A stretch of DNA of 64,000 nt from Nitrospirota bacterium (lineage in GTDB: Bacteria > Nitrospirota > UBA9217). This document shows positions 4,885 through 28,850 of the stretch, piece by piece (within the stretch, counting starts at the first letter, position 1; each line of letters opens with the position of its first letter). The DNA is taken from contig CAVUHW010000030.1 of the NCBI GenBank assembly GCA_963741205.1, positions 64,001 to 128,000 of the forward strand, in the 5' to 3' direction. The notes under the pieces are model-generated. The model was given only the letters and a program-made list of their open reading frames with translations. It had not been told where the DNA came from and ran no database searches. A program made the position numbers and the translations under genes.

Positions 4885-6249
4885 CTAGCCTCCGGGCAGG
4901 AAATCAATCGGGTACAGAATCGTGGTCTTGGAAACTTTCTCCTTCGGTCCGAAGTTGAACTTCTTGACACGCTCCACAATCTGGGCCACAAGCTCCGGCG
5001 AGGCCAGATCGCTCGAATTCACCGTACATGCGGAGACTTCGCCACCCGGCTCGATGGATATGCACAGGAGGATCTTGCCGCGCAGGGTCGGGTTCTTGCG
5101 CAGTTCGGCATTGTACATCCGATAGAGCGTCGCCTTGTATTTATCGAAGACGATCTGTATCTCTTCGTCGGTTCGTGACGGCCCGGGTCCGGAACTGAGC
5201 GGCCTCGCCCCTTCAGCCAGCCCCGCAACCGAACTTTCCACCCTGGTAAAGCCCACACCGCCGATACCATTGCCATTGCCGCGGCCGATATTGCGGCTGA
5301 CTGCCGCATTGCTGATACCGCCGCTGGAGCCACCGCCCGTTGACGGCATAGCGACTAATGACCTGCTGGCCCGGGCCTGACCTGCCGACACAGCCGACTG
5401 GTTGCTCAGACGTGCCTCAGCGCCGAGCCGCGCAGCGGGAGTTTCTTCCATCAAATCTTTAAAAGAATCTTTGAAGGCCAGGACCCCCGTGCTCTCCGCT
5501 TTGACGCGCGCAGCCTGTGTTTCTGTAGTGGTTGGCTTGGGTTGCTCCTCCTTCGCTTTCTCCGGCGTCTTTTCCTGATCTTTTTCGGGCTTCTTTTCTT
5601 CTTTGTGGCGTTTAGGCACCGGCTCGGGCTTGGGCCGTTCCTTTCTCAGCATGGAGACCAGGCGTTCCGGAACCACAGCCACGGCCGGGCGGACCGGCGG
5701 CGGCAGTTTCCAAATGAGAACCACACTGCTAAAACAGAAACACCATAATAAAGCGACAAGCAACGCCTTGCGGAAGCGTTTTTCGTTCTCAGCATCCCTG
5801 CTCCAAGGCATGATTACGACACGATAAGGAACGGGCGAAATCTCCCGCTCTATGACGTACTCTTCCTGTCGCCGTTCTTCACGGGCGTAGGCATCACGTA
5901 CTTCTTCGTCGAGGATGTTCAACTCATCGTTACACCGGTTGATCTGCCCCTGGAGAGATGATTGTTTTCCCAGAATCCCGCTGATCTCCCCCTCAAAACG
6001 GGCGAGCCGGCTCCTCGCCCGTTCCAGGTGCCCGGCGACGCTTTGAGCCTCCGCAACTCCTTCCCAAAAGAGTTCATCCGCTTTCAGTTCCCCCAGCTTT
6101 TCGAGCGAATTGCAGGCGTCCCGCAAGGCATCGAACCGCTGTCTATCGGCGGAGAACGTTTCCAGCTCTGCATCTACAGCGCGCAACTCACCTGCCAGCA
6201 CCTGCTGTTTTTGCTGGATTTGCTCGATCTGTGCGTTCAGTTGCGCCAA
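4885..6249 (-). CDS. GltG/AgmX/PglI-like energy transducer: coiled coil - TM - Pro/Lys/Glu linker - Gly-rich - TonB-C-like domain
   Basis: C-terminal RTDEEIQIVFDKYKATLYRMYNAELRKNPTLRGK...I.P.G.V......SS.L..P.L...I...VK.FNFG...YPIDFLP is the AgmX/PglI C-terminal signature; true start probably ~6278. Confidence 0.85.
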   Translation of the reverse strand: MAQLNAQIEQIQQKQQVLAGELRAVDAELETFSADRQRFDALRDACNSLEKLGELKADELFWEGVAEAQSVAGHLERARSRLARFEGEISGILGKQSSLQGQINRCNDELNILDEEVRDAYAREERRQEEYVIEREISPVPYRVVIMPWSRDAENEKRFRKALLVALLWCFCFSSVVLIWKLPPPVRPAVAVVPERLVSMLRKERPKPEPVPKRHKEEKKPEKDQEKTPEKAKEEQPKPTTTETQAARVKAESTGVLAFKDSFKDLMEETPAARLGAEARLSNQSAVSAGQARASRSLVAMPSTGGGSSGGISNAAVSRNIGRGNGNGIGGVGFTRVESSVAGLAEGARPLSSGPGPSRTDEEIQIVFDKYKATLYRMYNAELRKNPTLRGKILLCISIEPGGEVSACTVNSSDLASPELVAQIVERVKKFNFGPKEKVSKTTILYPIDFLPGG

Positions 6250-6287
6250 TTCCTCTGCTAATATGGTTAGTATTCACGGCAACCCCA

Positions 6288-8322: not shown

Positions 8323-9030
8323 CTAATGTTTGAGCCGTATGTGCAGCTCGGCAATCCATATTTTGGCCTGCGCGTCCCGGGGCATCCCCTCGCTGTAAAT
8401 CTCGAATTGTTTGAGAGCGCATTCCGGGTCGTTGAGATACAGATCACAGAGAATCCCGAGATTTCTATGGACGGGAAGATAGTCCGGGAAACTCGCGAGC
8501 GACTTCTCATAGATCTCCCGGGCTTCTTTAAAGCGGCCGCCCTTGCGAAGCAGCAACCCGTATTCATTACTGGCCACGGGGTGATTGGGAACCAGTTCCA
8601 GAGCGGTTTTGAGGTTCTGCTCGGCCGGCTCCAACTTTCCGGTCCGCATGTAGGCCACTGCAATGTTGATATATGGCGCAGTGACGCCAGGTGACCGCTC
8701 GATCACCTTTGTCAGAAGTTCGATGGCCTTGTCATTTTTCCCGTCGTTCATCATGGCGACGGCGCGCTCGAATTCGCCGCGCGACTCAGCATCCATACCC
8801 GGGTTTTCCCGGATGACGAACCCTTGCCGGCCATCTTCGAGCCGCGCCACGGATGGCCCCTGATCTATAATGGGAACGGGCTGCTGCGTGACTTTGGCGC
8901 TGGTTGCACACCCGGAAACTACCGCGAGTACCATCACCAGCGCCGCCCACCCGGCCCGCCATCGCACTTTCGACCACCAGAACAGCTCTGCATTCTTGAT
9001 CTGCATAGCCCAGCTCCCTATTTCGTTCAC
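8323..9030 (-). CDS. TPR lipoprotein (GltE-like)
   Basis: VSGC lipobox; tandem TPRs; NLGILCDLYLND...AL..F..Y C-terminal motif. Confidence 0.8.
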   Translation of the reverse strand: MNEIGSWAMQIKNAELFWWSKVRWRAGWAALVMVLAVVSGCATSAKVTQQPVPIIDQGPSVARLEDGRQGFVIRENPGMDAESRGEFERAVAMMNDGKNDKAIELLTKVIERSPGVTAPYINIAVAYMRTGKLEPAEQNLKTALELVPNHPVASNEYGLLLRKGGRFKEAREIYEKSLASFPDYLPVHRNLGILCDLYLNDPECALKQFEIYSEGMPRDAQAKIWIAELHIRLKH

Positions 9031-9037
9031 CTGAACC

Positions 9038-12000
9038 TTATTCCACCTTCACATCGGCCGGGGTACCCTTGTCGCCGCTGTCGCCCGCTCCCGGCGCCTG
9101 TTCTTCCGCCTTTGCTGCTTCTTTGGCCTCGGCCTGCTTGGCAGCCTGCATCGGTTCCGCGGCCTTCGCTACTTCTTTGGTCGCGGCCGGTTTGGCAGTG
9201 TGCTTCGGCTTTGCGACCGGCACCGCTTTTTTGGCTGCGGCCGGTTTTACAGCCTGCTTCCGTTTCGCAGTCGACACCGCTTTTTTGGACGCGGCCGGTT
9301 TCGCAGTCTGCTTCGCTTCCGCCGTTGCGTTCACCGCTTCTTTGGTCTCAGCCGGTTTCGCATCCTGTTTCGGTTCCACCACATTCACCGCTTCTTTGGT
9401 CTCGGTCGGGTTCACATCCGGCTTCGGTTCCACCGCGTTCACCACTTCATTGGTCTCTGCCGGCTTCACGTCTTGCTTCGGCTGTGCCGCTTCTGTGGCC
9501 TCGGCCGACGTCGGCCCTTGGGGCGTCTCCGGACGTTCAATGGCGAACAGGTAGCTATCCAACGAAGCGATGACGGGACTTTCCTCTTCCGGCTTGGCGT
9601 AGCGCGCGGGTACGAACATGGCCAGTTTCTCCAAACTCTTGTCGATCCACTCGTTGTAAATACCGACGGTCATCAGTTCAAGATTCTTTTCATGCATTTT
9701 GATGGCTTTATCCTCAAAGGGATAGGCCTGCTCCTCAATGGCAAGGTCATACTCTTCTTGTTCCAATGCGCTCAGTCCTGCGGGGCGTTCGGACTCCTTC
9801 AGGTCCTTGCTGAAGTGGGCATAGATCTCGGCCAGATAAAAGGTCGCCGCTGCCGTGACCTCGCCGACTTCATAATCGAGGAGTTTGTCAAACTGCTGGG
9901 TCGCAACCTTCATCAACTCCTTTTTCTTGCGCAGGTTGGTCTCGAATGGTTGGACCAGCTTGACTTCAGCGAACTGGTCGAAGGTTTGCTCGGCCAGAAC
10001 CATCGCGGCTTTGCCGGCAAGATAGCGGGTCCGTGGCGTACGCTCGCCCCCTGCGCCCGCATCAATGGCCACGATCTGCTTGAGCTCGGCGAGATAGATG
10101 TCTCGATCGTTTTTCTTCTTCAGAGCTTCCGCGATTTTGTTGCGCGTTTCCAGGTTGGTTTCCACCGGATGCGGGAAATATCCGACATAGCGCCGGTAAA
10201 CCTCGAGCGAGCGGTCGCTGTTGCCCGCCTGTTCATGCAGGTCCGCTGCGATCAGCAGTGCCTCCCGCCTTACCTCGTCATCCTGGGACTCTCTTTCTAT
10301 GCGTTCATACTCATTAGCGGCCTGCGTCAGCTGCCCATCCTCTTTATAGACGTAGGCGATCTTCTTGGTCACCTCTGGCTGCAATGCATGTCCGGGGAAC
10401 AGGTCCCGGAAGCCCGCCAGCACGGTGGCCGCCGTCTTCCAGTCCTTAAGCTGCATCAGGGCTGCGGCTGCATCGTACTCCGCGTTCACCCTGATTTTGG
10501 AGGCCGGAGCCATACGCCCCACCCGCAAAAAATGCTCGGCTGCTGCCCGATAATCCTTGCGGGCATTCGCTTGTTCGCCCTGCTTGTAAATCGATGCCGC
10601 AAGATTATCGATCAGAGCATCGCGGCTTTTGTCCCCGGCGGGGAGCAGCGCCAGCACATTCACGTAAGCGGTTTCAGCTTCGTCGTAGCGAGTGAGCTCG
10701 TAGGTTGAGTGGCCGACCACCAGCCAGGCTGCGCGCACGACCTCCACCTCGGCGCCGGGGAATGCCGACAGAAGCTTGCGTGCGGCCGCGACCGCCGGTT
10801 CATAATCCCGCATGTCGTACAGATCATCCGCAGCCGCCCCCAGAACAATCGCCGCCTTCTCATGCTCCGGATAGGTGTCGGCGAACTTCAGCGAGCTGCG
10901 TACGACCTCCCGCTTCACCTGATCTTTTGCCTCGGGCGCAACGCCGGCAAGATGTTGGCGATAGGCGTAAATTGCTGCGTAGCCGGCCTGCGGGGACTTT
11001 TCGTGACGCGGGTATTCATAGGCGGTCTTCTCGTATTCCACCGCCGCCAGATCAAAGGAGCGGTTTTCCAGGAACAGATCCGCCAACAGATAATTAACAG
11101 CCGGCGACTCGGGGTCCATCGGGAAGGAGGTGAGGAATTCCCGGTACCAATGCAGCGCTTCCTCGAAGTTTGCCTTCTTGTCCTTGATCTGCTGCGGACT
11201 CTGGTAAAGCGCATGATAATGTTTGGCCAGATCAGTAAGGTTCGTTTTGAGCCAGGCCAGAACTTCCGGACGGGCGCCGGTTCGAAATGCTGCCAGTATT
11301 CGGCCTTGAGCCCGTAATTGCGGGCAAATTGCTTTTTCGCGTCAATGACCAGGCTGGGGAACGCCCCGGCAAGATGGATTTCGATCACCCGCATGGCGAA
11401 TTGCGGCGATACCTTGTGGAACGGATTGCGGCTGACAAAGGCATTGTAGGTTGCTGCGGCGTCGGCGTAACGGCGCTTATCGAAGTAAAATTCCCCGAGG
11501 TTGCTGTAGACGCCGTCCTCGTAACTGCGCTTGCCGTGGCGGTTGAAGTACTCGACCACGGAGTTGGCGCCGCCGAGGTTGGAAAAACTCAGGCTGATGA
11601 CCCGGAAGGTGTCATCGATGCGCTTTCTTTCCTGCTCGTCCTTGGTCTGCGCGAAATCGTAGCCCATGGACACCTTGTAATCCAGCAGGGCAATGAACCG
11701 GTGCAGGGCCTCGTCATAGAGTTCCTGCTTGTAAAAGGTCCAGCCCAGCTTGTACAGGGCGAGCTGATAATAGGACGAAGAGACGCCCATGGCCACGATG
11801 CTGCCGTAGGCCTCCTCGGCATCCAGGTAATGCCTGCGGGTGAAGAAATATTCGGCGCGCCGGAACTGCACTTCATCCATATACCGGGATTTCGGATAAT
11901 CGCGCACCAGCCGGTTCATGACCCCCATGGCCTCGTCGACCTGCCCCAGTTCCTCATAGGCGCGGGACATCTGATACAGCACCTGATCGTTGCGCTCGTA

Positions 12001-12540
12001 CGCGGGATAATCGTTCAGCAGTTTCTTGTAGAGTTCGATGGCCTCAAGGGCACCGGCCCGCTTCAGGTCATCAGCACCTTCGGCAAGTCCGTCCGCAGCC
12101 GCGGCTGTGCCGGTCGCCGTGCTCTGAGCCGCCCTTTTCTCAAAATCGGCCTGCGCTTCACCCGGCGCTGGTGCAGGAACAGAGGAGCGCAAGGGCGCAA
12201 CCTCCGGACGCGCCGCACGTTCCGGAGAAGGCAAAGTCGCGGCGGAGCCCCTCCGCTCTGCTGCGGTATCGCCGGAAAGAACGCCATATTCCCTTTCGAC
12301 CTTCAGGTCTGCCAGGCGGCGAATAGCCTCCGGCTTCAGGGCCGCGTCCGGCGTTTCTTCCAGAAAGCGCCGGTAACCCTCCATGGCTTTCTCGAGTCCG
12401 CCTTCGATCTTCTCTTCCTTGATTTCGATCTGCATGGTTCGCAACGTGGCAATCGTATCCTTGCCGCCGACCGACTGACAGGCGCAGAGGAGCAGCGGCA
12501 GCGCGAGCACGCTCCATCGAAGACAATTCATTGTCCTCAT
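9038..12540 (-). CDS. large TPR lipoprotein (~1,170 aa, GltD/AgmU-like) with repetitive C-terminal tail; frameshift near 11270
   Basis: LCAC lipobox; ORFs 10915..12540 and 9038..11119 join; many TPRs; ERPAGLS.LE.EEY...IEEQAYPFEDKAI..HE.N.......YNEWI.KS...LA...PARY.K motif. Confidence 0.82.
9105..9490 (-). repeat. about 7 degenerate 54-bp (18-aa) tandem repeats, consensus ~EPKQ.AKPAETKEAV...
   Basis: QPKQDVKPAETNEVVNAV/EPKPDVNPTETKEAVNVV/EPKQDAKPAETKEAVNATA/EAKQTAKPAASKKAVSTA/KRKQAVKPAAAKKAVPVA/KPKHTAKPAATKEVAKAA/EPMQAAKQAEAKEAAKAE. Confidence 0.8.
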
Positions 12541-14432
12541 TGCTCGGCCCCCTTCCGAAGTTGGGCCTTGCTGGCCCGGTCGTAACTGTCCGCCAGGGCG
12601 AAGCGCGCCTTGACCTGGAACTCTTCGAGCCGCTCGCGCCGCCTGGTGAGTTCATTCACGGCCATGACTTCAAGCATATGTCCCTGACGGGCCATCAATT
12701 CCTCCACTTTTTCCCGGGCGGCCGTGATCCGGGCCCGCAGGCGGCGGATCACCTCGTCATACCCTTCATAGCTTTGGGTGGCGGCCTGGCGGGTACGGAC
12801 AAAGGACGCGTACTGTTTGTGCAGCAAGTCGATGACGTGATTCAGATCTCGAAGATTTTTGTGCGCCTCCGTAAGGCGCTGGTCATATTCCGTATAAATC
12901 TTCCAGTCCAGCACTCCCCGCAGACGCCTGACGCGGCCCTTGACTTCGTCGCTTGTAGCCGCACCGCCTCTCGCGGACATGGCCTTCTCCAGCCGCGCGA
13001 TGCGTTCCCCGAAAATCCGCTCCGGCGCGGTCGCCAGGTAGTCGGGCCTCGGCGCCACCAGCATGGCCTGCAGCCGCTGTTCGATGCGGTCTCGCTGCTC
13101 CAGCCGCAACCGCATCTGCGAGTCGAGCCGCCTGAATTCCCGGTCGATCGCGGGCAGCAGCGGCTGGTAATACGCCCGGCGCTGCTCGATGATATCCTCG
13201 AAGGCGACCAGGTCCCCTGACCAGACCTCCAGTTTCTTGCGCAGCTGCTCAAGGTCGAGATAATTTTTCAGTGATTCCTGGAAATCATGGGAGGCCATCA
13301 AATCGAGCAGGTAGAATGTCTCGGGCGTTTCCGGCAGCTCGCGCAGCTTGACGACCCAGTTGGCATCCTGTTTCAGCTCTTCCCGGACGAGGGCTTTCAG
13401 AAATTTGCCTTCGCGGATACTGCTTGATCGAGGCGCCGAGCTTGTCAATCTCCTTGCCGAACGCCTCCAGTGCCCTGCCATACATCAGCGCCGCCTTGCT
13501 GTACACACCGAGCTTCCCATAGGCATAGGGGACGGCAAGCATGGCTTCCTGCACCGCCGGGTCCGTGACCTCGCGTTCGGCCAGGATGCTCCATGGCACC
13601 AGGGCATTTTCGAACCGTTCCCGGGAGGCGTCGGCCCAACCCGAACCGAGCAGCGCGCGGTTGGAAAACGGGCCGCTCAGGCGCACCCTGTCGAGCACCT
13701 CCTTGGCGCCCTCGAAATTATTTTCACTCATCAGCTTGTCGCCGAGAACGAGGTTCGATTTGTCCCTGATCGCCAGCGTGGCCGGATTGCCGCTCTCAAT
13801 CCGGCCGGTACGGTCGAGATACTCGCGCCCTTCCCGCACCTTCCCGCTCTTGAGCAGCGCGATCCCGAGGTTGTACGTGGTAAAACCTTCCAGGCTCTTC
13901 GCCCCTTGGAGTTCTTTCAGAATGCGGGCTGCATCGTCGAAGCGGCCGTTGGCCATGAAAATTTGCGCCCGCAGGAAAGCCAGATCATCGCGAATATCTT
14001 CGGGAACGGCGCCCTTGATGCGTTCCACGGCCTGCAGGGCGTTCTGCGGCTGGTCTTTCTGGAAGTAAATCCGGGCCAGGCGGAAAATGGCCTCGTTGCG
14101 CACCGGCTCCTCGACATTGCCCTCGATCACCGCCTTGATGGCGCGCCCGGCACGCTGGTGCATCCGGTATGCCAGTTCGAAATCACCCACGTCAAACTCC
14201 GCCTGGTTGATATGGTAATGAAGGGTGTCGCGTTCGGGTTCATCGACCCCATAGTGCTGCATAAGCTCGGTGTCGAGCCTGGCGACGGCATCGAACCAGT
14301 CCCCTTGAAATGCGTAATAAAGGGCCTCTCCGAAATAGAGATCCTTCAGTTCTTTCGGAGCGGACGAAGCCAGCCGCTCGCCGAAGACGCAGAGAATATC
14401 AGAATTGTCAATGATATAAGCAGCCTGTTCAT
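12537..14432 (-). CDS. TPR + coiled-coil periplasmic protein (~630 aa, GltC-like); frameshifts near 14360 and 13425
   Basis: ATG 14432 with signal peptide; KDLYFGEALYYAFQG.WFDA..RL; VRL.GPFSNRALLG.GWA; VQEA.LAVPYAY; ends ARFALADSYDRA; stop overlaps next start. Confidence 0.8.
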
Positions 14433-14435
14433 GGT

Positions 14436-14952
14436 CTACCTGTCATGAAGGGTAATGCTTTGGGCGGCCAGAGATATTTCCACGATCTTGGGGCCCACAT
14501 CCTTGTTGACCTTGAAGCTCTCCGATTTTTGGAAATCGGTGCCTCCCCCGGTTTTCCCGATGACAACAGACCTGGAGATCATGCTCGCCGGACCGGACAT
14601 TGCCGGTATAGATGCGCTGCACCCCCCCCTTCTGCAAGGCTTCGAGTTCCTTGAAGGAGTAAAGGTGATGGGCAACCGGCTTGCCGTCCAACTGGATCTC
14701 GACCGAGTCGAGACGGAAGGTTTCGCCGCTGACCAGTGATACGAATACCGCGACCTGCGTATTGGACGGATACAGCAGCTTCTCTTCAAGCTGATTCAGT
14801 TCCGCCGCAATGCCCAGAACATCGCTCTTGATTTCCTGAACCTGCTCATCCAGGCCCTTGATCTGTTCCCGGGAGATTTCCTCCGCATAGGCAGGGAAGC
14901 CCAGCATCAGCACGGCAATGGACAGGATGAACCCTCGTAATATGTGGAACAT
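14436..14952 (-). CDS. secreted protein of unknown function (short coiled coil + beta-sandwich); frameshift near the 3' end
   Basis: Signal peptide ending AYA; LDEQVQEIKSDVL....EL..LEEKLLYPSNTQVAVFVSL...LDSV...LDG..VA.HLY...EL.AL..GGVQR.Y.GN. Confidence 0.75.
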
Positions 14953-14984
14953 GGCTGCCTCCTGGTTCGAGTCAATTTCCTTTT

Positions 14985-17900
14985 TTAAAACTGCCCGACC
15001 ACATTGATGAACAGACCCCGCTGTCTGTAATCCAGTTGGGTCAGATCATCCGAAAAATCACTGAAGTTATAGCCGACACCCGCCTTGATATTGTTCCCCA
15101 CCTGCCGGTAGATCGCCGCCAGCACCCCGCTGCGTTTGTCTTTCGCATCGGGTAGATCGAGCAAGCGCCCTTCAAGCAAGGCGTCCCACTTTTGCACGAA
15201 ATGCCAATCCGCACGGAGAACGTAAAGGTGGGCCCGGCTATCGAAAAATTCCTGTGTCACGCGATCCTCGCTGATTTGCCCCAAGCGATAGGCGTATTTG
15301 CCGCCGATGGTCCAACGCTGGGTGAGGTCATACATCACATCCAGCGAGAAGATGTGGCTCTTCTGAATGAAATCCGCGGCCGTATTCGTGACCGTATTGG
15401 CGGCCGTATTGGTGACCGTATCGGTGACCTGACCGACGCTCGGGAGATTGTAAAAGTACGTATATTTGAACAAGGTGTTGAGGCGATCGTTCGTCACGGG
15501 CCGATAGCCGTAACCCAGGACTGCTTCCGTATAATCGCCGTCGTAGAAACTGCCGAGCGAGCTCTTGCTCTCGGCGTGATTCAGTTTTCCGAGGAGCCGC
15601 GACGCGGGGTCCATCTGGTATTTGAAAACGTTCTTGATCAACCAGCTGTCCCGATCCACCGTGCTCACGCTCAAGTCCGGGTTTATGGTGTCGGTCTTGT
15701 CCACGCGATACTCGAACGCGGTCGTCCAGGAAAATCTCTCGTCGCCGTAACCGACCCGCACGCCGGCCGCTTTGCGCTCGAGACGTGCGGCGGTGATGGG
15801 ATCTCGCAGCGTTCCGAAATCCACATTGACACCGAAGTTCCAGTGATCAAAAGGCGCAAGGTCGACGCCCGCGGAATGCGTGAGGCCCGTTGGCACCTTC
15901 CCGTGCGTATACTTTTCCTCTGCATACACGCTCGTGGTATCCGAGTACCGCGTCTTGACCCCGGTAACCATATTTCCCTTGTTCGAACGGATACCATTGT
16001 CCGGCGTCTCGTTGTCGTACGTGTAATTCAGGTATAAATTGGTCCGGTCGGAGTAGAGATACTCCGTACCGACCTTGCCCGCGCCGCCGAGATCGCCGGC
16101 CGACACTTCGCCAGTTACCTTGAACCGATCGGTGACGCGGTAAGCGCCGCCCGAACCCACGCGACCGTTTTCTTCGCGGTTGCCGGTCTTTTTGACCGTA
16201 TCCTGTGCGAAACCGTAGGCAGTCCATCTCTCCTTGGAATCGTAGGTCGCCCGCAGGGCCGCATCCGTGCGATCACCCTCCATCTGCGTCGGCGGCACGA
16301 CCGGCGAGTGATCCTCGCGGCTATCGAGCCTCACCCCCGGGCTCAGGGTCCAATGCTCAGTCAACTGATAATTGACATCGACCTCAGACGCATTGGTCTC
16401 GAGTCCCTGTTGCCGGCTTGTTTTGTCCGTCTTGGCGGTCACATTGACTCTGTCTGTCACCGGCGCATTCAAAGTACCGCCGTACTGCTTGGTATCCGTA
16501 GCCGTCGCCAGGCCCGGCGCCGAATAGCCCGCATCGATGTTCTGCGTGTAGAACGTCACCTGACCGTTCGCACCGTCGATGATGTCTCCGAAACCGATGC
16601 TGGTGTCGACCCGGTAAGCGCCGGCACTGCCCACGACTGGCGTTTCCGTCGAGCCGAACGTGAAGCCGCCATCGTTTGAAGAAAGGGAGGTCAGGCCGGG
16701 TCCTTTGCTCTTGGACGTCTCCACCTTGATCCACGACGCGGCGCTTTTCCTGAGGGTAAGATCGGCGGCATTGAGCCCGTTCGGGTTCTCCGAATCCTGA
16801 TCCTTGCTGGAGGTGATGCCCAGTTTCACGTAATCGTTCAGCCACACATGGGTACGACCGCCGAGACTCATGCTATTGGTGTCGCCGGCGCTCGGTACGT
16901 ATTCGTAGCGCACGACCAAAAAAACCGGATTGCCGCCAGCGGTGTCGCTGGCCACCAGCAGATTGTCGCTCGCCGTCGGCGACAGGGGTTGCGAAAGTGA
17001 AATGCGTCCCTGCAGGTAATCGACGGTGTAATCGAGAGTCGGCGTCAGATTCTTAACGGAGGTGACGATTCCCGAATCCTTGTCGCGCACCTCGATGCGC
17101 ACGCGCTCGGAGCCGGTAAGGATGTCAAGATGACGCAAGTAATAGAGCGAACCGCCGGTACCCAGAAACTCGTCCCGTGTTCCGACTGTGCCCGGCTGCG
17201 CGGCAAAGCCGTCAATCATGAACCGCTTCTCGCCGAAGCTCGTCGTCGACAGTGTTTGATAATGGGCATTTGCGCCGTACAATCCGCGATCCACGTGCGC
17301 CAGGTCGTTGTCGTTGTAGCCGATGTTGAAGTTGCCCCACAGGCCGTAGCTGTCGTCCTTCTTCATCTTCAAATAGAACTTGCCGAGCGTCGGCGCCCCC
17401 TCCTCCACGCTGCTGTCGTCACCGTAGGTAGGATAGAAATACTGCGGATCGATGCGCCGGAACAATGAGTCGGTCGACCTGTCTCCGAAGTTGTTGAAGA
17501 TATCCTTGACTGGCCCTTCGAGCGTGTCCGCGCTTGAGGTCAATTCCCAACCATTGCCAAACTTGCCCTTGGTGTAGAAGGCCAGCCGGCCATCGTAGCT
17601 GAAATCGTTGTTGTAGTGCGTCTGATCGTTGGTGACGAGCTTTGCCGGGCCGCTCGTGGAATCCCGGGCCACAGTGACATCGGCGATGCCGACGTAAAAC
17701 CAGTCGTTCTTTTTAAGATCGAGATCGCGCAGGAACAGGTCGCCGTTACCCGATTTATCGAGTATCGCCACCTCGACGGTGTGCATGCCCGGCGGGAGGA
17801 TTTCTTCGGTGACAAACTTGCCTTCATTCCCGACCGGCACTGCGCGGCCGGCCACGAACACCGAATGATCAGCCGGGACCTCGCTGCCAGTAGACCTTGA

Positions 17901-20123
17901 TCGTCCCGCCTTTCTTCGGAATATTGTCTACGACGAGGTGATTTTCGCCGTAGCCGACCAGCAACTCCCTTTCTCCGTCGTGGTCCTGAATATCCGCAGG
18001 CTGCCTGTCAATGATCCAGATCGGCAGCGGCTGGGTCTCGTCGAAATTGTTCGACGCGTCGTAGACACGCAGCACGTATTTCAATTCGCGCCCGGGGGCC
18101 TTGTATTCGGGGAAGGTCGGCTGCCACTCTGCGCGGCCATCCTTGTTGACCTCGATGACCGCAAGGGGTGTGTCGTTTACCGACTCCAGCGCGTCGAAGA
18201 TGCGAATTTCCGCTTTCTTGATAAAACTCGCGTAGTTCGTGTAGGTGCGGAACCGCATCAGGTTTTCCGGGTATTCGGTATTCGGGTCGTCCTGATAACG
18301 AATGGAATTCGGCCAGGCCGTCACATTCAGTCGGGGTTTCAGCTCAAGATTGTCGAATTTGAATTGCACATTCGCCTTGTCCAGGGCCACGTCGGTACAC
18401 CGCTCGATATCGGCGATGCTCTTGCCCGGATCGTCGACCGGCTTGCCGTCGACGGTGATGCGCATGAGGTTCAGCGCAAGGGGATCCTTCGGAGTGACCT
18501 CACGCGTGAAGCGCGTGATATCCAGTCCCTCGGTGCCGTCAAGAGCCAGCAGCTCGTCATACACGACCTGCACTTCGACGCGCGCCGTATCGGATTCGAC
18601 AAAGCCCGTATTGACCACGTCGTCCGATTGCACATAACCGCGTCCCTCGAACTCCACCTGACCATCCTTCAGACCCGACTGCTCTTCGACGGCATTCATG
18701 GCCCGGCGGGCACGGGCGGTCGAAAGACCGATATCGTCACCGTATACCGTCGCAGTGCGGCGATCGAGGCGCTCGTCGTTGGTATAACCGATGAAGCGGA
18801 GTCGCACCTTCTCTTTGTCGCGAATCTCATCCATGCTGCTGATCAGGCGCTCCAGGTGTTCCGACGTAATGACCGGCTTCCCCTGCTCAAACAGGATCGG
18901 CTTGACGCCGCCGGACGGCGAATCGTAAACGCGAGTCACTGTTTCCACACCCACGGCTTCCGGGCACATCTGCGGCTCGTCCGACAGCTCCTGCAGGGCG
19001 TCGTCATACCAGAATTCGACTTCGATGCGTCGATTGAGCGCCCGGCCTTTCTCGGTGTCGTTCGAGGCGATGGGATTGGCCGCGCCCTTGCCGTCCACGT
19101 CGATCTCCGACGTCGGGAGTTTCAGCGCATCCTGAACGGCGAGCGCCGCCCGCCGCGCCCGCGCCTTCGACAAGGCCACCACGTTACCGTAAATTCGCTC
19201 GGTCCGCCCCTCAAGTGGCAGGTTGTCGGTGTATCCGGTGAATTTGACTACGAGGTGCTCCTTCGCCCCCAGGTTGGTGAGCGCCTGCCGCACCTTTTGG
19301 ACGAATTCCCCGGGGACGGCCGTCGTGTCATCGTCGAAGTGGAGCGGCTCCACCAGGTTCTTGATGCGGGCGCGCTTTGAGTGCCCCTCCTTGTAGCGCA
19401 ACTTGCACACCGTCTCGACGCGGCACACCTTTACGCGATTCATCTGCTCCGCAACGACCACCTCTTTGTCCACCAGTTTATCGGTGATCTCGTCGTACCA
19501 GACCTCGACTTCGACCCGCCTATTGAGCGCCTTGCCTTGCTCGGTGGCGTTGTTCGCTACCGGCTGGGATTCGCCCATGCCCTCGTAAGTAATCGACTCG
19601 GGCGGAAGATGGAGGGCCTTCTGGAAATACTCGGCGGTGACTCCCGCGCGTTCTCGCGATAAGCGTGAGATTGTCGCCGTACTTTTGCTTCACTTCTCTG
19701 AATAGCTGCGCGTTGTCCGAGTGCCCCACGAAATGCAACCGGACGTTGTTGCGTCCTTTCATGCCGTCGAGCACCTCGCGCAGACGCTGGACATAACCTA
19801 TCGGGAATCTCCGCTTCTCCGGATGCAAAGTGAATCGGCGGAACGAGGTTCTGCACTTTGATGGTCTTGACCGCTTTTTCCAGAACCTTCTTCACTTCGA
19901 CTTTGTCTCCCTGCTTATCGTCCCCGTCCCCACCGTGCACCCATAAGGTGCGCGGCTCATCGGTTCCCGCTTGTTTCTCGACCGCCTGGCCGAGAGCAGG
20001 CGCCTGCATCACGCCTGTTTCCGCAGCCATCAGCGGGGCCGAAACAGCAGCCGTGTTCGTTTCCGCCATCGCCACGGCGGAAACGAGACACGAAACACCG
20101 ATGAGTGAGATCCGCTTCAGCAT
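14985..20123 (-). CDS. ~1,710-aa outer-membrane protein: signal peptide, three OmpA-like domains, Ig-like region, very large C-terminal beta-barrel; 3 frameshifts
   Basis: Pieces 19557..20123, 19520..19828, 17869..19578, 14985..17861; F.GHSDN/GYTDN/GYTND and NRRVEVE/NRRIEVE/TARVEVQ motifs; ~900 aa of amphipathic beta-strands ending ...GLFINVVGQF (terminal Phe). Confidence 0.82.
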
Positions 20124-20161: not shown

Positions 20162-23100
20162 TTATTGCCCGTTGTTCTCCACCGAACTTCTCGCGGGAGG
20201 TCCACCACGCCGCCAGAAGATTTCGGTCTCGATCGTCAATTCGTAGCTTCCTTGCTCCCATCGATCCGTGATTTCACGCTTGAGCGCCTCGGTGCGCGCC
20301 TTCACAACTGCCTGATCCTCCACATCCGCGAGGTACGAGATACGGAGAATGGCCGGCGCTTTGCGCAATTCGCCGAGCAGCATCTCGATTCTCGGTTTCC
20401 ATTGCGGCCGCATCTCGGTGGATCCCGGCTCGAACACGCCATCCGCGATGTCCAGGCTCACGACGCGGTGCAGCGTCGCGCCGAAGTTGAACTTTATCGC
20501 CTTACCTCGGGTCAGGCGCTGCACGAGCGGGTTCTGGGTGGTGACGCGATAACCCGTCGGCAGCGTGCGGTCATCGAGTTTCAAGATGAAGTTGCTGCCC
20601 CGATCCTCGTTGGGGACCGCGGCGCAAGTGATGTGGAAACGACCGTCCTTGTCCGTCGTCACAATGAGACCCCGCGCGCTCACGATCCGCACCCCGCCCA
20701 GGCCTTTTTCTCCCTCATCGGGGTAGCCGTTGGCGTTGGCATCATCGAACACCTTTCCGATGATGTCCGTACAATCGAAGGTGGGATCGGGAACGATGCG
20801 CACTCTCGCCGTCGCCACGGTGGTCATGGCTTCACCCGTAGTGCTGCTAAGTACCTGCGCGCTGTTGTCGTAGTTACCTTCCTTAACGCCCGCGCCCACG
20901 ATGAGCAGCAGCTTGATTGTGTGATCGCCGTCCGTGAGCTGGAGATTGTCCCAGCGCAGGTCGCTCGTGGTTTTCACGGGCTCGAGCCGGTTGCCGTCGA
21001 ATCGGGCGGAACCGTCGACATATTTGAATCCGGGCGGGAAGCGATCCACGATGGTGAGATTCGACAGAGTCGCGCCCAGTGTGTTCTTGACCGTGATCGT
21101 GTACGGCACCATCTGCCCACGCGAAACATTGAGTAGCAACGCCGTCTTCGTGATCGTGACTCCGGTGTTCAACGGGGGGTCTACGGCAATGTGATTATTG
21201 AAGAGCTCGATACCGCCTGCGGCGGAGTTGCTCAGCATGAAGTGCAGGTAGTACTTCGTGCCCACCGAATTCGCCGGGACGCTCGGCGCGGGGGCGAACT
21301 CGGACGGCTGCGCTTCGCAGTAAGATGTCGTCGCCGGAATGGCATCGTCAGCGGTGCCGGGGCATCCCGGGACTGAAAACGGCGGTGTAGGATCGGTTGG
21401 TGCAATAATGCCAGAAGGCGTGGGGCGGTACCCATTCGGCGGCGTGACGCGAATGACGTAGTCGGCCCCCGCCGGGCAGGATGGGTCGCTGAAGTTCAGA
21501 TCGAACTTGTAGTAGCCCGGCGCGAGCGTCACCTGGTTCTGCTGCGCCGGATCATTAAAGCAGCTCGCCGGAAGCGCACTGTTCGTCGATGCCCGCACCA
21601 TGGTTACGGTGGCGCCGGCAATCGGGGTGCGCCGGACCGAATCGTAAATAACGCCGCTAGGATCGATCGGCAGATTCAGATTCTGGAGATTACGGCCCGA
21701 AACCGCCGTGATACCGGAGATCCGTTGCAAGCCATTGGTGAATGCCGAGTCGGCGAGACCCAAGAGCGCCGTGCTCGTGGTAGCGCCGGGCGCACTGAAT
21801 CGGATTTCGTACTGATCGGCGGCGGTCATCGTGGGTGCGAGGCCTCTAAAACCGTACGCGCCGTCGGTGTCAGTAGGCATGCTCGCCAGCAGCTGGCTGT
21901 TCCGGTAGACCTGAACAGTCCAGCCGGCCAATTCCCTTTCATTGCTTTCACACGTTTTGTTGAAGTTCGCGTCGTGCCAGACACTGCCGTTCAGCATTAC
22001 GCTGCCGGGCGTGCCGCCGATATCCACGGAAGCGTTACTCGAGGCGTTCTGGTTGGGTGTGTTCCACGTGACTTGCGCCGTATTGGTCAGCGTCGTACCG
22101 ATCGTTCCCGACACGAGCTTGGCGTGGAATCGCAAGATCGCGGTTCCATTCGCGGGCAGGCTTCCATAGACCGACGAGTAATCCGCTATGATTACTGAAC
22201 CTGCGACAGTGATCCCGGCGCCCGAACTATTCAGCACCGCTGATCCCGGCACATAAGAGAGTTGGCCAGGCAGGGCATCGGTGATCACCACGTTGGTCGC
22301 CGGCACCGTGCCGATATTGGTCACGCGCACTGACATATTCGAGCTCGGCGCCGACTACGGCGGTTCCGCCACCAACGACTGCGACTTGCTTCGTGATCGT
22401 GAGCTGTTGCGCGTTACCTACCGCGATAACGGTCGGCTGGTAACCGTTGGTCGCGTTGCCATCCGAGTCAGTCAAAAGCGTCGGCAACTGCGTGGTCGAC
22501 GCACTGCCTTGGTTGCTGATGATCGTTCCGGAGGGCACGCCCGCGTTGACCTGTAGTCTGAAGGTCACGATGCCCGTGCCGCCTGTCGCCAGGGTGCCAC
22601 CGACCGACGGGGACGGCGGCGGGGTTTGGTCGGAGGAAACGACGCCGATGCCGCCTATGAGGGGCGATACGCCGGCGCCGGGATCTCCCACTGTCCGGCC
22701 GTTCATCACCAGCGAATTGGCCACATAGGTGGTATTGGCAGGAACGGCGTCCGCGAGCACCACGCCCGTCGCCGGAGTTGCCCCCGAGTTGGTCACGATG
22801 ATGGTGTACTGGAGCACATCGCCCGGATCGACGAGTCCATTATTATTGTTGTCCACGGCGAGCTGGACGGTCTTCAGCGCGTAGACCAATGGCAAGTTAC
22901 CCACAACGACCCTGGTCGGATCGTTCAGTACAGGGGTCGCTGGATTGTCGGAGGGTTGTTCGGGGAACGGTACCACTGCCTGCGCCGGAACCGTTTACAA
23001 AGCCCTGGTTGGAGATGATGGTGCCGTTAACGACGTTGGTGCTGATGCGCACGTCAAACGTGACCGTGGCCACATTTGTCGTAGCCGCGCTCGCGTCCGC

Positions 23101-26100
23101 GCGCATGGCACCCGCCGCCGTGTCAACGGGCGAGTTGATCGACATGCCGTTTTGCAGCGCGCTGACACCGGCCGGTATCCGCCACGGCCAGCGCCATTCA
23201 GCTTGGTGCTGTTGGCCACGTAGCTCGTGTTAGCCGGGATCTGATCGCGCAACGTCACGCCCGCTGCATTCTCGTTGCCGATGTTCTTCACCGTGATGGT
23301 GTAGCGCAAGGTATCGCCAGCCATGATGGTTGAGGTACCGGACGTAATGTCTTGCGCCGTTTTCAGCACACGGAAGACCGGCGCCGACGTGATGATCGTG
23401 CGGGTCGGATCGCTGGTTCCGGGTGAGGGACGGATCATCGCTCAACTGTGTCGGCAATGTGGACGAGCCGATCTGCGCCTGGTTCAGCACTGCGGAGCCG
23501 CTGGTGATCACCGGCACGAGCGTGGCCTGGAACTCAATGACCAGCTTGTCGTTGCCGCCGCCCTGCGGGTCGATACTCAGGTTGCTGATACTCACCAGAC
23601 CCGTGCCCTTGGTCCCGCCGGTCGCCGAGGTCAGTGTGGTGTTCGCGCCTGCCGGAACGGTGACGAGCGTCAGGCTGCCGGGCACGAACATGGCGGTCGT
23701 ATTCAGCTTGTCCAGCTCGTCCGTCAGCGAGAAGTTCGTCGCGCCCACCGTGCCGCTGTTCTGGATCGTCAAGGTGTACTTCAGCGTGTCGCCGGGTTTG
23801 GCGTTGGCGCCGGGCTGGCCGGTGGTCGCGTCATAGAGTACGGTCTTGGTGAAGGTCAGCACCGGCAACTTCGTGATAATGCTGGCAGATATCGGGCCGA
23901 GGAAATAGTCATTGACCGCCGGTGTGCCACTGCCCGTGCGTTCATCGTTGTTGACCCCATTCTGGCCGGTCCACTGGGCCGAGGTGCTGGCCGCGAGTGT
24001 CTGTCCGGACTGTACGTTGATCAGGACCTTCGCATCGTAAGTAGACAGTGACCGTTGTCCCCTCTCAGGAATATCTATGTTGGAGCCGGCCGATCCCCAG
24101 CTGAGTGACTGCGGAGTGGTAATACCATCGCCCGTAATGATCGGCGCCGAGATGGTATTGCCGGCGCCGGTGACGGTGACGTTACCGTTATAGGCAAGGC
24201 CAAGCGAGAGCGCTTCGGCAATGCTCAGATCAAATGCGCTGGAGTAGCTGTCGGTAGCTGGGTCCGCCCGCTGCTTGAAACACGAGCGTATAGCGCAGGA
24301 TGTCGCCGACGGTTGGTGCAACGCCGGGATTTGTCTGGTTACTCACGCTCTTGGTGAGCGTCACAACCGGCTCGATGATTCGCAGCGGCTGGGCAGTGGT
24401 GCCGGTGCCGCCATTCTTCTTCGCGCCGCCCGCGGTGTCGGCGTACGTGTAGGAGGCACTATTTTGGAAACTCACCCCGGCATTCGCCGCGCTGTTATTG
24501 GCGACGCGGGCATGCACTTCGATGATCGCCTGCTTACCTGCCGGGATCTGCGCCAGGGTGAGATTCACCTGGCCGGGTGCAACGCTGCTGTCGCTCAGGG
24601 TGAAATTATTGCCGCTCACATCAGTCGCGCTGACATACACCAGCGAGCTGTTGAGAGTATCGGTCACCGTCACGTCATAAAGCGCGGCATTAATTATCGT
24701 CGTTGGCACCGTAATGCGATAGACCACTGCATCGCCGATCGTCGCTTCACCGCTCGCTGGTGAGATAGAGCGTCTTGGACGGCTGGGAAATGGTGGCGCT
24801 GTTGGTCATCGTGAAGATGGCCGGACCAAGCGCTCCATACTTTTGTCCCGACTGCAGCGGCAGTGACCAGTACTCGGCGAGAGTGACGCTGTTATTCCAG
24901 GTCTGGTTGGAGCCGAAGTCGGTATAGAAACCGATATTGTAATCGATGGTGACGCATTGACCCGGATTGACCGGCGTACTCAGCACAAAGGTCATCGTGC
25001 CGCCGCGCACTGCAGGCGGTGTATAGGTGTAATCGGTCCCGGCAGTGAGGAGCGTACCGCCGACACTCACGGCGGGCGGGGTGATGGTTGTTTGGTTCAA
25101 CTGGCTCGCCAGCAGGTCGGTGAACTTGACGCTGTAAGCCGGCGCGGTTCCGTTATTGCACGACCCCAGGCGGAACTGCATAGTATCAGTAGTGACATTG
25201 ACCTGTAACGGACTGGCGCGAAGGGCACGATCGATCTTCGTCGGCGTGCTCATGATCGGCTGCCAGCACCGTGATGTTGGCGCTGCTGCTAAGGAGAGCG
25301 CTGCCGGTGTAAGCAAGCTTGACGGTGTTGCCCAGATTCGTGGCGGGCTGCTGTGTCAGCGTGTTCGTAACCACGCGTGCGCGGTATTGGATGACGAAGG
25401 TGTTGTTGGCGGAGTTGTTGTCGATGGCGTTGGTGATGTTGCCAAAGTTCCAGATAACGGTATTGCCGCTGACCGTAGGTGCAGTGAAATCGGTATAGGT
25501 AAACGGCGCGGTCTGGCTGAACGGCGCGGAGGTGTCGCCATTGATGCTGACAACGCTGTCGAAGGCAAGGCCCGCGGGTAGCGTATCGGTGACCACTACA
25601 TTCTGGAGCTGCCCTTCGCGCAGGGTCAGAGCGAGACGGTAAACGACAGTGTCGCCGACGCGCAGAATCGAGTCGGTGCCGGTGCTGGGTGCAGTAGTCC
25701 AGGAATCGGAGACCACCGATTTGGCAATGGTGGTGGGATCGAACGTGGGGACCGTGGCAGAGGCCGGGCCGTAGCAATAGTTGTTTGGCGAGGTAATGGT
25801 CGGGCAACCGGCGCCGGTGCGCTCTCCGCTCTGCGCGTCCTGCAGCGAGGTCCAATCCACATAGACGCTGTTGTTGATCGGCAAGCCGTTGACCGACACC
25901 ACCGTCACGCGATAGGTCAGCACGAGCGACTGGCCAGCGGGGATGTCGAGCGTGCCGTCATTGTTCTGGCGGCCCCAAGCCAGGGCGCCGCTGGGCAGTG
26001 TGGTTGGATTCGCTACAAAACCAGTGACCGGAACGCCGTTGATCTGCGCTGTGGCGGAACCGGGGACCAGCGATACGTTCACCGGCAGCGTGTCGACGAC

Positions 26101-28629: not shown

Positions 28630-28677
28630 CCGGAGCTTTTCCTCCTTTCTCATGGGCTGTAGCATAGCAACGTGCGG

Positions 28678-28790
28678 TGATCGGGAAAGTCCGTGACGAG
28701 ATAACGCTAGCAGAGACCGATCACTCCTGTCTCGGCTTTTTATGACGTGCTCTCGGCTTTTTATGCTTTTTTGATAAAATAAATCACTTT
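28678..28790 (-). promoter_or_regulatory. repeat copy 1: putative AraC-activated promoter of the adhesin operon
   Basis: Direct repeat TCTCGGCTTTTTATG at 28730-28744 and 28751-28765 (21-bp period); TGcTAGCGT extended -10-like element with hexamer at 28704-28709 on the minus strand. Confidence 0.7.
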
Positions 28791-28850
28791 CGAGACAGTA
28801 GCCCTCGAGAACTGGCTACGAGCCGCCTCCCCGACCGTATACCCCTTCAT
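28761..28850 (-). pseudogene. vestigial third AraC copy / 29-aa mini-ORF
   Basis: MKGYTVGEAARSQFSRATVSKVIYFIKKA*; retains tcactttcg (the ..RK* end of both AraC genes) and a ..EA...S.FSR remnant. Confidence 0.4.

Follow-up and report, generated by a model that had tools for sequence, protein, structure and literature searches.

The barrel encoded at positions 14985..17861 of a 64,000-nucleotide stretch of Nitrospirota DNA (the window) raises the question of whether it conducts proteins, in the manner of the type 9 secretion translocon SprA/Sov, or serves as a nutrient receptor. The segment that invited the comparison, YYLRHLDILTGSERVRIEVRD...KNLTPTLDYTVDYLQGRISLSQP, occupies residues 239-293 of the encoded protein P0001 (positions 16900-17200 correspond to residues ~221-321). 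The motif is real and far beyond chance: a 140-aa segment around it aligns without gaps in 79 of 80 related loci, at 58-96% identity across the 80, the one other locus being a codon shorter. Within the barrel module, conservation peaks in a 60-aa window that begins at residue 230, and G250, S251, D277, Y278, and G285 are invariant or near-invariant (n = 84 sequences). The pattern that the sequence-only reading had given for SprA fits poorly. Its first half (GS..V......L) has no literal fit to P0001, and the form L..G.DY.[IVL][DN]...G.[VIL] is literally matched by only 79 of 305 family members.

The Complete Gene and Its Family

P0001 represents only part of a gene, namely the C-terminal module of a secreted protein of ~1,710 aa encoded from 20123 to 14985 on the minus strand (Table 1), in which a signal peptide is followed by three OmpA-like peptidoglycan-binding domains, spacer domains, and the barrel. 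Intact homologs of 1,650-1,750 aa align over four frames of the window, where three frameshifts interrupt the gene. Two frame changes, near 19800-19816 and 19660, split the first OmpA-like domain, and the one that parts the 958-aa ORF from the rest corresponds to one surplus base relative to the close relatives L003 and L005. The OmpA-like domains said to precede the barrel do exist (PF00691, E = 1.1e-14 in the ORF 17869..19578), albeit in a different frame from P0001. In L003, an intact relative of 1,714 aa matches PF00691 in three stretches (E = 4e-29). With at least one OmpA-like domain, the full protein can be placed in the OmpA family, whereas P0001 itself contains none.

TABLE 1. Features of the barrel locus, in positions of the window.
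Feature	Position	Strand	Description
Giant DUF11 / SdrD-B / DUF7507 Ig-like repeat protein	20162..28815	(-)	Upstream partner, fragmented
Last 724 aa of the DUF11 protein, P0003	20162-22336	(-)	Conserved upstream in 68/80 loci
Gene start	19557..20123	(-)	ATG at 20123, signal peptide MLKRISLIGVSCLVSAVAMA, first OmpA-like domain; from intact homologs
Gene middle, other frame	17869..19689	(-)	OmpA-like peptidoglycan-binding and spacer domains; Pfam PF00691, tblastn of intact homologs
Frameshift that cuts off the 958-aa ORF	17885..17895	(-)	DNA alignment
ORF P0001	14985..17861	(-)	958 aa, C-terminal barrel module of the OmpA-barrel protein
Insert domain	16869..17198	(-)	Residues 222-331; 110-aa beta-sandwich between wall strands 7 and 10
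Motif core inside insert domain	16974-17153	(-)	Residues 237-296
Phe beta-signal GLFINVVGQF	14988-15017	(-)	C-terminal end of P0001
Small secreted protein	14443..14964	(-)	No family; 179 aa in intact L003; one frame change here; conserved in 33/80 loci
Three TPR proteins	8323..14442	(-)	Fragmented here; 634, 1067, and ~186 aa in intact L003; conserved in 24-31/80 loci
MotA/TolQ/ExbB-like protein	7277-8089	(-)	Pfam PF01618
Two ExbD/TolR-like proteins	6790-7308, 6495-6803	(-)	PF02472; second identified through intact L010 homolog
GltG-like protein with TonB-like C-terminal domain	4885..6273	(-)	NF033768, 59.7 bits (cut-off 40)

The barrel module has 3,330 representative relatives at E ≤ 1e-3. 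Among the best 150 of these, it is C-terminal in nearly all, behind N-terminal regions of 0 to ~5,900 aa. Eight long members were scanned, of which seven carry DUF11-type repeats and three carry OmpA. Despite the size of the family, P0001 matches no Pfam (E ≤ 0.01) or NCBIfam (E ≤ 10) model, and a search of PDB sequences with P0001 alone gave no match at E ≤ 10. The nearest relatives are labeled Nitrospirota and Pseudomonadota. Existing labels of members read only 'OmpA family', 'MotB' or 'hypothetical', and the ESM Atlas supplies only automated labels ('outer membrane protein', 'OmpA family protein', and the like). In literature searches on DUF11 with OmpA and TPR, DUF11 with barrel and adhesin, the Glt core with adhesin, and 38-48-stranded barrels, which covered few subscription journals, the family was undescribed.

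A Predicted Barrel of About 40 Strands

An unusually large outer-membrane barrel had been proposed, and structure prediction bears this out. The AF2 model of P0001 (pLDDT 86.3, pTM 0.77) has 42 long strands within residues 54-957, about 40 of which make the barrel wall, with the first strand pairing with the last; a standard 22-strand plugged transporter is not what emerges. Strand count, lumen width, and closure were judged from the DSSP string, covariation, and aligned ranges. For covariation, a mean-field method with a reduced alphabet was applied to gap-poor rows (305 of 322 unique rows kept, Meff 217). Adjacent strands score 0.279 vs. 0.139 for non-adjacent ones, and the pair of first and last strands lies at the 99.4th percentile. 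Even strands are followed by short connections (median 4 residues, range 2-11), odd strands by longer ones (median 7, range 3-110). The chain indeed ends in Phe, as first noted. The protein thus shows the features of a BAM-type outer-membrane barrel, i.e., antiparallel strands, first-last closure, an even strand number, short periplasmic turns, and a C-terminal aromatic residue. The test for even/odd hydrophobic alternation is weak, with 8 of 42 strands above the 95th percentile of loop windows.

The barrel may enclose one wide lumen or consist of two lobes, and covariation favors neither. Foldseek with the whole model returned generic barrels only (TM ≤ 0.27) and no family assignment. The 16-strand porin Omp32 superposes over both model termini (rmsd 4.0 Å, 232 residues), which speaks against a single wide, round lumen and in favor of a shape that is elongated, pinched, or made of two barrels (16+24). 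The aligned ranges fit such lobes, with porins spanning both termini, 19- and 22-strand barrels lying on residues 333..669 and 170..669, respectively, and 14- and 16-strand barrels lying on residues 600-958 at rmsd 16-17 Å. From these ranges we infer a possible junction at strands 10/11 and 34/35, which would join a 16-strand lobe to a 24-strand lobe. Covariation gave no signal for either junction scheme, the pairs (10,11) and (34,35) lying at the 51st-68th percentile and (10,35) and (11,34) at the 16th-20th. A double barrel joined at DSSP strands 8/9 was rejected, as covariation pairs strands 7 and 10 and leaves strands 8 and 9 with no wall partner.

Chaperone-usher pilus ushers (PapC, FimD) have 24 strands and pass folded Ig-like subunits. 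If the model is two-lobed, its larger lobe would equal the usher strand count. Usher families have no Pfam match on P0001, and ushers appear among the structural matches at Z 10.7-11.7, in alignments that cover the whole model and not one lobe.

The motif lies in a domain inserted into the barrel. Strands 214-221 (7) and 332-340 (10), which flank it, form the top non-adjacent covariation pair. The domain is predicted to sit in an extracellular loop, since short loops after even strands and long ones after odd strands are what is expected of an outer-membrane protein with the insert outside the cell. Folded alone (pLDDT 77), it finds phage tail-fiber domains at Z 7-7.9, and its profile shows a weak likeness to cadherin repeats among PDB sequences (E = 0.06). 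The motif is a beta-sandwich signature and not a SprA hallmark. As the insert is the most conserved stretch of the protein, a role in capping the lumen or docking a partner is more likely for it than that of a variable surface loop.

A Giant Repeat Protein as Partner

The upstream gene encodes a giant Ig-like repeat protein of the DUF11 type. The segment at its end is conserved at 39-81% identity (best segment), with at least 52% in all but one locus. One fused protein, P0130, is collinear with both the DUF11 and the OmpA-barrel genes at 52-53% identity, and frames that join the two, 4,291-4,655 aa long, are present in four genomes belonging to the same genus. The DUF11 giant and the barrel protein are thus a conserved pair, which in some genomes is a single polypeptide. 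Because the two are fused there, the C-terminus of the fiber and the N-terminus of the barrel protein must occupy one compartment; this would be the periplasm, should the OmpA-like domains attach to peptidoglycan in it. Judged by eye alone, the DUF11 protein resembles an OmpA-like domain in its last ~100 residues; on that likeness, the entire fiber could be periplasmic.

Motor Genes and the Agl/Glt Core Complex

Downstream of the barrel gene in the window lie genes for a TolQ/TolR-like motor, a GltG-like protein, and TPR proteins (Table 1). The same kinds of genes adjoin the barrel gene in 29 of 80 loci, and the full set recurs in 20-25. The GltG-like gene is found in the flanks of these 29 in two gene orders, downstream in 21 and upstream in 8. 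The flanks examined in the other 51 loci showed no motor gene, and Pfam scans of the downstream genes in two loci gave unrelated genes. The GltG-like protein of the window also matches the GltG model NF033760, with E = 3.1e-11, but at 42.5 bits, far below the 650-bit cut-off.

These neighbors resemble the Agl/Glt 'core complex', which comprises gltC, D, E, G and aglR, Q, S according to the original description (Luciano et al., 2011; PMC3169522), whose consulted passages make no mention of the present barrel. The cluster contains one MotA/TolQ-like protein, two ExbD/TolR-like proteins (PF02472 is present in two copies in L010), a GltG-like protein with an above-cut-off match in its AgmX/PglI C-terminal domain, and three TPR proteins, for which equivalence to GltC/D/E is putative. 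In Myxococcus, the system uses small barrels in the outer membrane (GltA, B, H) and CglB as adhesin; here, a single giant OmpA-barrel protein and a DUF11 fiber adhesin would take those roles. The same work notes that core-complex genes cluster in Geobacter and non-deltaproteobacteria with undefined function (Luciano et al., 2011; PMC3169522). The role of the complex outside gliding myxobacteria has been an open question since 2011. A 2020 preprint still describes this function as undefined and suggests that the core complex might suffice for secretion.

Proposed Function

The proposal that the barrel conducts proteins and is not a nutrient receptor holds in part. A protein-handling role is plausible because the genomic context includes a giant repeat protein, fused to the barrel in some genomes, and a proton-driven motor, and no TonB-receptor family matches; the part that gained no support is kinship with SprA. 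In our estimation, the chances are about even that the protein, anchored to the cell wall, gives the repeat fiber a platform or conduit in the outer membrane. The OmpA-like domains would anchor the barrel protein to the cell wall, the C-terminal Phe signal would address the barrel to the BAM machinery, and the repeat fiber would be threaded through the barrel and held there. The proton-driven motor would, via the GltG-like and TPR proteins, power or gate fiber export or movement.

Such a protein would resemble an autotransporter in topology but have a much larger barrel. As in type V autotransporters, the barrel is C-terminal, ends in a Phe signal, and stands behind a long N-terminal repeat 'passenger', and passenger and barrel are here one chain or two neighboring genes. 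Unlike type V systems, which have 12-16 strands, the present barrel has about 40, OmpA-like domains lie between passenger and barrel, and an energy-transducing motor is linked. No autotransporter beta-domain or POTRA/ShlB family was matched in Pfam, and the protein is not classed as an autotransporter.

A broader proposal is tentative and, we consider, rather doubtful: that the family is the missing outer-membrane component of an ancestral Agl/Glt core complex and, with the DUF11 giant, forms a widespread, undescribed proton-driven envelope machine. If true, this machine would serve a giant Ig-repeat fiber, exporting, holding, or moving it through a single-chain barrel of ~40 strands, possibly a 16-strand lobe interrupted by a 24-strand lobe, as an independently evolved functional analog of type 9 secretion and gliding. 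The constant pairing with a giant barrel and repeat fiber would offer the core complex a concrete cargo and an outer-membrane part, both testable in cultured hosts, i.e., Microbulbifer, Povalibacter uvarum, Alkalilimnicola ehrlichii, and Geotalea sp. SG265. A 2026 preprint gives SprA, with 36 strands, as the largest known barrel, and the SlpA paper mentions three predicted 38-strand barrels in Deinococcus. The present barrel would exceed SprA, and a confident single-chain barrel of ~40 strands would equal or exceed the largest known.

Alternative Explanations

The foremost alternative, less likely though of appreciable weight, is that the protein links outer membrane and cell wall as a structural element and/or acts as a large porin, conducting no protein, with the DUF11 protein as a periplasmic or envelope scaffold. 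Its N-terminal peptidoglycan-binding domains and very large C-terminal barrel would make it an analog of Deinococcus SlpA/OmpM or of OmpA/OprF; SlpA/OmpM likewise joins a wall-binding N-terminal part to a very large C-terminal barrel. The three OmpA-like domains before the barrel agree with this, as does the compartment that the end of the DUF11 protein must share with them. The structural matches include the 30-strand SlpA (PDB 8AGD/8AE1; chain 8agd_A, Z 14.0 over 451 aligned residues), and its paper reports that connectors are widespread and vary in barrel size. However, five of the eight long members scanned are without OmpA, with thousands of adhesin-type repeat residues directly before the barrel, and the tight linkage to a TolQR/GltG-type motor in two gene orders is unexpected for a passive tether. 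In SlpA/OmpM, an SLH domain and coiled coil stand in place of the OmpA-like domains, and neither segment was found in the protein; the DUF11 partner and motor are further differences. PDB searches with P0001 and the module profile gave no sequence match to SlpA/OmpM.

Decay of the operon in this organism, which would make the frameshifts real and the barrel gene a pseudogene, is improbable. In its favor are seven frame changes from 20123 to 9038 relative to intact L003, a surplus base near 17890 that lies outside any homopolymer run, and an intact rpoB. The verdict was based on rpoB, rpoC, and dnaE of the same assembly. As rpoC lies in three pieces and dnaE in two, with an in-frame TGA, frameshift errors appear to be genome-wide, and these genes are essential; the pieces of the operon, moreover, keep 76-86% identity to intact relatives, with no large deletions. 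The frameshifts are most likely assembly errors, as the platform or conduit reading assumes.

Very improbable is an unusually large nutrient receptor of TonB-dependent type, powered by the neighboring genes. ExbB/ExbD-like and TonB-like genes do share the operon, and Foldseek matches include TonB-dependent transporters (E ~1e-7 to 1e-6), yet at TM-scores of no more than 0.27. The original observation that no plug is evident was upheld, as the Plug and TonB-dependent receptor barrel families (TonB_dep_Rec) of Pfam and NCBIfam have no match on P0001, and a module of about 40 strands, against 22, is fused behind giant adhesin-type repeats.

Least of all do we expect a distant homolog of SprA/Sov with the motif as a common family signature. 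The SprA model TIGR04189 matches neither P0001 nor the 140-aa insert at E ≤ 10. Nor does the Pfam SprA N-terminal family match at E ≤ 0.01. A TIGR04189 search of the window's own genome (84.5% complete), which gave no match, carries no weight, as its control matched in none of 14 genomes. No SprA chain was retrieved from PDB sequences at E ≤ 10 by a profile of the complete module or by one of the insert domain, and the nearest relatives are not labeled Bacteroidota.

Structural comparison gives a similar picture. SprA chains give the longest alignments with the whole model (617-622 residues, Z 12.8-15.7) and rank first in a second structural comparison, but at rmsd 13.4-13.7 Å they are tied with 16-strand porins, and the matches are generic. 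A specific match of the motif segment to the SprA structure was not apparent: with the insert alone, SprA ranks 20th, below phage tail-fiber domains. Its Z of 5.3 falls under the level that the structure-search tool calls meaningful, and the 71 aligned residues (20% identity) are scattered over SprA chain positions 264..752 (~490 positions). What the two systems have in common, a motor, a huge barrel, and a huge adhesin, may be analogy without kinship. SprA/Sov (PDB 6H3I, 8GL6) is likewise a very large single-chain barrel with folded domains in extracellular loops, and it operates beside a proton-driven motor and giant repeat adhesins; its motor is GldLM/PorLM, whereas here a TolQR/ExbBD motor occurs with a GltG-like protein, and OmpA-like domains are present.

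Reading Frame and Protein Family

The ORF encoding the large barrel comprises 958 codons, and its product ends in GLFINVVGQF. Because intact homologues align across four frames and an extra base lies at the junction, this ORF is a fragment of a longer gene. Both the intact homologue P0018 (1,675 aa) and the protein of the related locus L003 (1,714 aa) align over four successive window frames, from the ATG at 20123 to 14988, and relative to L003 and L005, another related locus, the window holds one extra base at the frame junction next to the 958-aa ORF. The frame of this ORF is open upstream as far as 17927, and the neighbouring ORF ending beside it starts in the middle of an OmpA-like domain. 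The full protein begins with MLKRISLIGVSCLVSAVAMA, which by inspection appears to be a signal peptide. Seven frame changes relative to L003 lie between 20123 and 9038. In the same assembly (contigs C13 and C36 of the window's own genome), rpoB is whole, rpoC is split into three pieces, and dnaE into two, with an in-frame TGA in addition; since rpoC and dnaE are likewise broken, the frame breaks are most likely assembly errors rather than gene decay. Many single-frame breaks occur across window 9038-28815 and the rest of the genome, and fragmented gene calls are thus to be expected.

No Pfam family matched the 958-aa ORF at E≤0.01, and no NCBIfam family or PDB sequence did so at E≤10. The family of this barrel module is very large: among 7,999 candidates scored, 3,371 proteins were relatives at E≤0.001, and a second count, on representatives of 50% clusters, gave 3,330 at E≤0.001, 956 of them at E≤1e-30. 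Database names are limited to "OmpA family protein", "flagellar motor protein MotB" and "hypothetical", and those of the ESM Atlas are no better. Among the best 150 representatives, nearly all carry the whole 958-residue module at the C-terminus, preceded by 0 to about 5,900 residues. Among 12 members scanned for domains, DUF11 repeats were found in seven, often together with SdrD-B, DUF7507, SpaA or CarboxypepD_reg domains, and OmpA in four; for the eight scanned members exceeding 2,000 aa, the counts were seven and three. In a sample of the phylum comprising 301 genomes, among them the window's own, the module matched 45 at E≤1e-20; within the family of the window's genome, it matched 38 of 63.

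Structure of the Barrel

An AlphaFold2 model of the module, run with an 84-sequence alignment, reached a pLDDT of 86.3 and a pTM of 0.77; DSSP assigned 42 strands of 7-20 residues within residues 54-957. Mean-field covariation, computed from 305 gap-poor sequences (Meff 217), yielded a ladder score of 0.279 for adjacent vs. 0.139 for non-adjacent strands and placed the first-last strand pair at the 99.4th percentile, which supports closure of the barrel. The top non-adjacent covarying pair joins strand 214-221 to strand 332-340, and the two DSSP strands in between lack a wall partner; on this pairing, residues 222-331 are a predicted inserted domain, and the modelled wall would comprise about 40 strands. 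Thus, the unusually large barrel proposed in the sequence-only reading is supported by the model. For comparison, the 36 strands of SprA are called the largest known barrel in a 2026 preprint, and a 2022 paper mentions three Deinococcus barrels with a predicted 38 strands.

Even strands are followed by short connections (median 4 residues, range 2-11) and odd strands by longer ones (median 7 residues, range 3-110). Such alternation is the usual outer-membrane pattern. With the N-terminus, which bears the OmpA-like domains, set in the periplasm, the longer connections after odd strands would place the insert on the extracellular side. A test of hydrophobic alternation was weak, only 8 of 42 strands exceeding the loop control.

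Foldseek, applied to the whole model, returned generic barrels only (LptD, TonB-dependent transporters, MtrB, SlpA and SprA; TM-scores ≤0.27), so that this check, suggested in advance together with the strand count, gave no specific SprA match. In VIA comparisons, 16-strand porins aligned from residue ~52 to 958 (Z ~15). The Omp32 superposition (rmsd 4.0 Å, 232 residues) fits across both ends, which speaks strongly against a round 40-strand wall. A 19-strand barrel aligned to residues 333-669 at 9.3 Å, a 22-strand barrel to 170-669 at 7.5 Å, and 14- and 16-strand barrels to 600-958 at 16-17 Å. These aligned ranges fit an elongated or pinched barrel. They would also fit a two-lobed one, in which a lobe of 24 strands (11-34) interrupts another of 16 (1-7, 10 and 35-42); covariation favours neither pairing scheme for the wall junctions.

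The Insert Domain and SprA

The motif that had suggested SprA (residues 239-293 of the ORF) lies in the insert and is not due to chance. The surrounding 140 residues align without gaps in 79 of 80 related loci (58-96% identity), the remaining one being a codon shorter, and conservation across the module peaks in the 60-residue window that starts at residue 230. Among 84 sequences with identity down to 30%, G250, S251, D277, Y278 and G285 vary little or not at all. The strict pattern L..G.DY.[IVL][DN]...G.[VIL] is present in 79 of 305 members, and the GS with its alternating-hydrophobic start in 258.

Kinship to SprA itself found no support. For the module, SprA gave the longest structural alignments (622 residues, Z 12.8, rank 13; 617 residues, Z 15.7, rank 1 in a second look), with an rmsd of 13.4-13.7 Å and scores tied with porins. 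Profiles of module and insert, searched against PDB sequences, retrieved no SprA chain at E≤10 (4 and 16 matches, respectively). The insert was also folded alone (residues 206-345, 54 sequences; pLDDT 77.2). Foldseek found no match to this model at E≤0.001, and VIA gave 25 chains at Z≥5, none of which reached Z≥8. The top VIA matches were beta-sandwich domains from the N-termini of phage tail fibres and adaptors (Z 7.0-7.9); SprA ranked 20th (Z 5.3), with 71 aligned residues scattered between chain positions 264 and 752. The closest solved sequence to the motif was the first cadherin-23 repeat (E 0.06, non-significant). Because these matches outrank SprA, the modelled fold points to a small beta-sandwich signature rather than a SprA hallmark.

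The archaellum stator FlaF/FlaG was among the weak fold matches of the insert (Z 4.1). The phylum sample also contains a second family, more distant and with proteins of ~2,000 aa (e.g., G132:C14:42197-43219 and G178:C10:100014-100940, from two of its genomes). It matches only module residues ~22/50-390, i.e., the first wall strands and the insert (29-34% identity, E 1e-22 to 1e-31). The N-terminal part of the barrel, with its insert, may be reusable as a unit.

Partner Protein and Downstream Genes

A scan of species genomes gave 599 pattern matches, of which 575 were confirmed as relatives; 80 loci were kept. Their records are labelled Nitrospirota, Geobacter/Desulfuromonadales, Gammaproteobacteria, Acidobacteriota and others; among the carriers in culture are Alkalilimnicola ehrlichii, Microbulbifer donghaiensis, M. 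sediminum and Povalibacter uvarum. In 78 of 80 loci the barrel follows the OmpA part, as had been noticed for the window. The upstream DUF11 protein has a conserved end of 724 residues, which was found in 68 of 80 loci (39-81% identity, at least 52% in all but one); most loci without this end have little or no upstream DNA. In the homologue P0130 (3,297 aa), the DUF11 protein end (52% identity), OmpA part (53%) and barrel (53%) are fused collinearly, and open frames of 4,291-4,655 aa with the module at their end occur in four genomes of the window's own genus. Since the pair is conserved and in some genomes fused, the two proteins probably work together, the C-terminus of the DUF11 fibre and the N-terminus of the barrel protein lying in one compartment. 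By eye, the DUF11 protein ends (last ~100 residues) in what resembles a degenerate OmpA-like alpha/beta domain, with no Pfam match. In M. sediminum, loci L080 and L081 (one contig, ~16 kb apart) are apparently two tandem copies of the pair; with nearly equal coordinates and identities, they might instead represent one repeated region, viewed twice with overlap.

The genes downstream of the barrel gene were read in the window and from the intact copies of L003 and the related locus L010.

Features of the locus (window coordinates unless stated)
Feature	Position	Strand	Remarks
DUF11 protein	20162-28815	-	repeat protein
Conserved DUF11 protein end	20162-22336	-	last 724 aa
OmpA-like region by eye	20162-20500	-	last ~100 residues
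Neighbouring ORF	17869-19578		
958-aa ORF	14985-17861	-	barrel module
Motif region	16900-17200		residues ~221-321
Small secreted protein	14443-14964		without family; homologue at L010:12958-13482
Three TPR proteins			634, 1,067 and ~186 aa in L003
MotA/TolQ/ExbB-like protein			one
ExbD/TolR-like proteins			two
GltG-like protein			462 aa; C-terminal domain passes AgmX/PglI model (59.7 bits, cut-off 40)
ExbB-like matches	4518-4758	-	in or next to GltG-like region
Small OmpA-family protein	3900-4490	-	PF00691, E 3e-19; just past GltG-like gene
TIR-domain protein	3194-3862	-	PF13676, E 3e-12; just past GltG-like gene

The TolQR/GltG/TPR set is frequently linked to the barrel gene. Within the flank DNA examined, a GltG-like gene accompanies 29 of 80 loci (21 downstream, 8 upstream of the DUF11 gene); the 462-aa protein matches the GltG model itself weakly (E 3e-11, far below cut-off). 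Microbulbifer has a GltG-type domain on the same strand, ~6-15 kb past the locus, if the contig is the same. The downstream genes scanned in A. ehrlichii and M. donghaiensis are unrelated to the motor set.

The gene set resembles the Agl/Glt core complex in its TolQ-like, two TolR-like, GltG-like and TPR genes, the TPR proteins being candidate counterparts of GltC/D/E. According to Luciano et al. (2011), this complex (gltC, D, E, G and aglR, Q, S) is clustered in Geobacter and non-deltaproteobacteria, with its function unknown; later texts still call it so. The Myxococcus model has GltD and GltC linking GltG to the outer-membrane platform.

Proposed Mechanism

The protein is secreted, joins OmpA-like domains to a C-terminal barrel of about 40 strands with a conserved extracellular insert, and is partnered, in some genomes fused, with the DUF11 fibre. 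The barrel may be anchored to the cell wall and serve as platform and conduit for threading of the fibre, comparable to an autotransporter but on a far larger scale. The motor would then gate or power fibre export or movement, and the insert could cap the lumen or dock the fibre. The protein-handling role first suggested for the barrel is plausible and has gained a system context. The main rival is a passive, SlpA-like connector between outer membrane and cell wall.

Further Features of the Locus

The L010 homologue of the small secreted protein matches ArlG weakly (E 5.5e-4, 20 bits vs. a cut-off of 110); this likeness to the archaellum stator probably reflects no more than a shared beta-sandwich. 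The small OmpA-family protein has a tblastn match in one of 80 loci only. The short tblastn matches to the L003 ExbB-like protein (56-78% identity over 18-48 residues) may be the remnant of a second ExbB-like gene, or chance.
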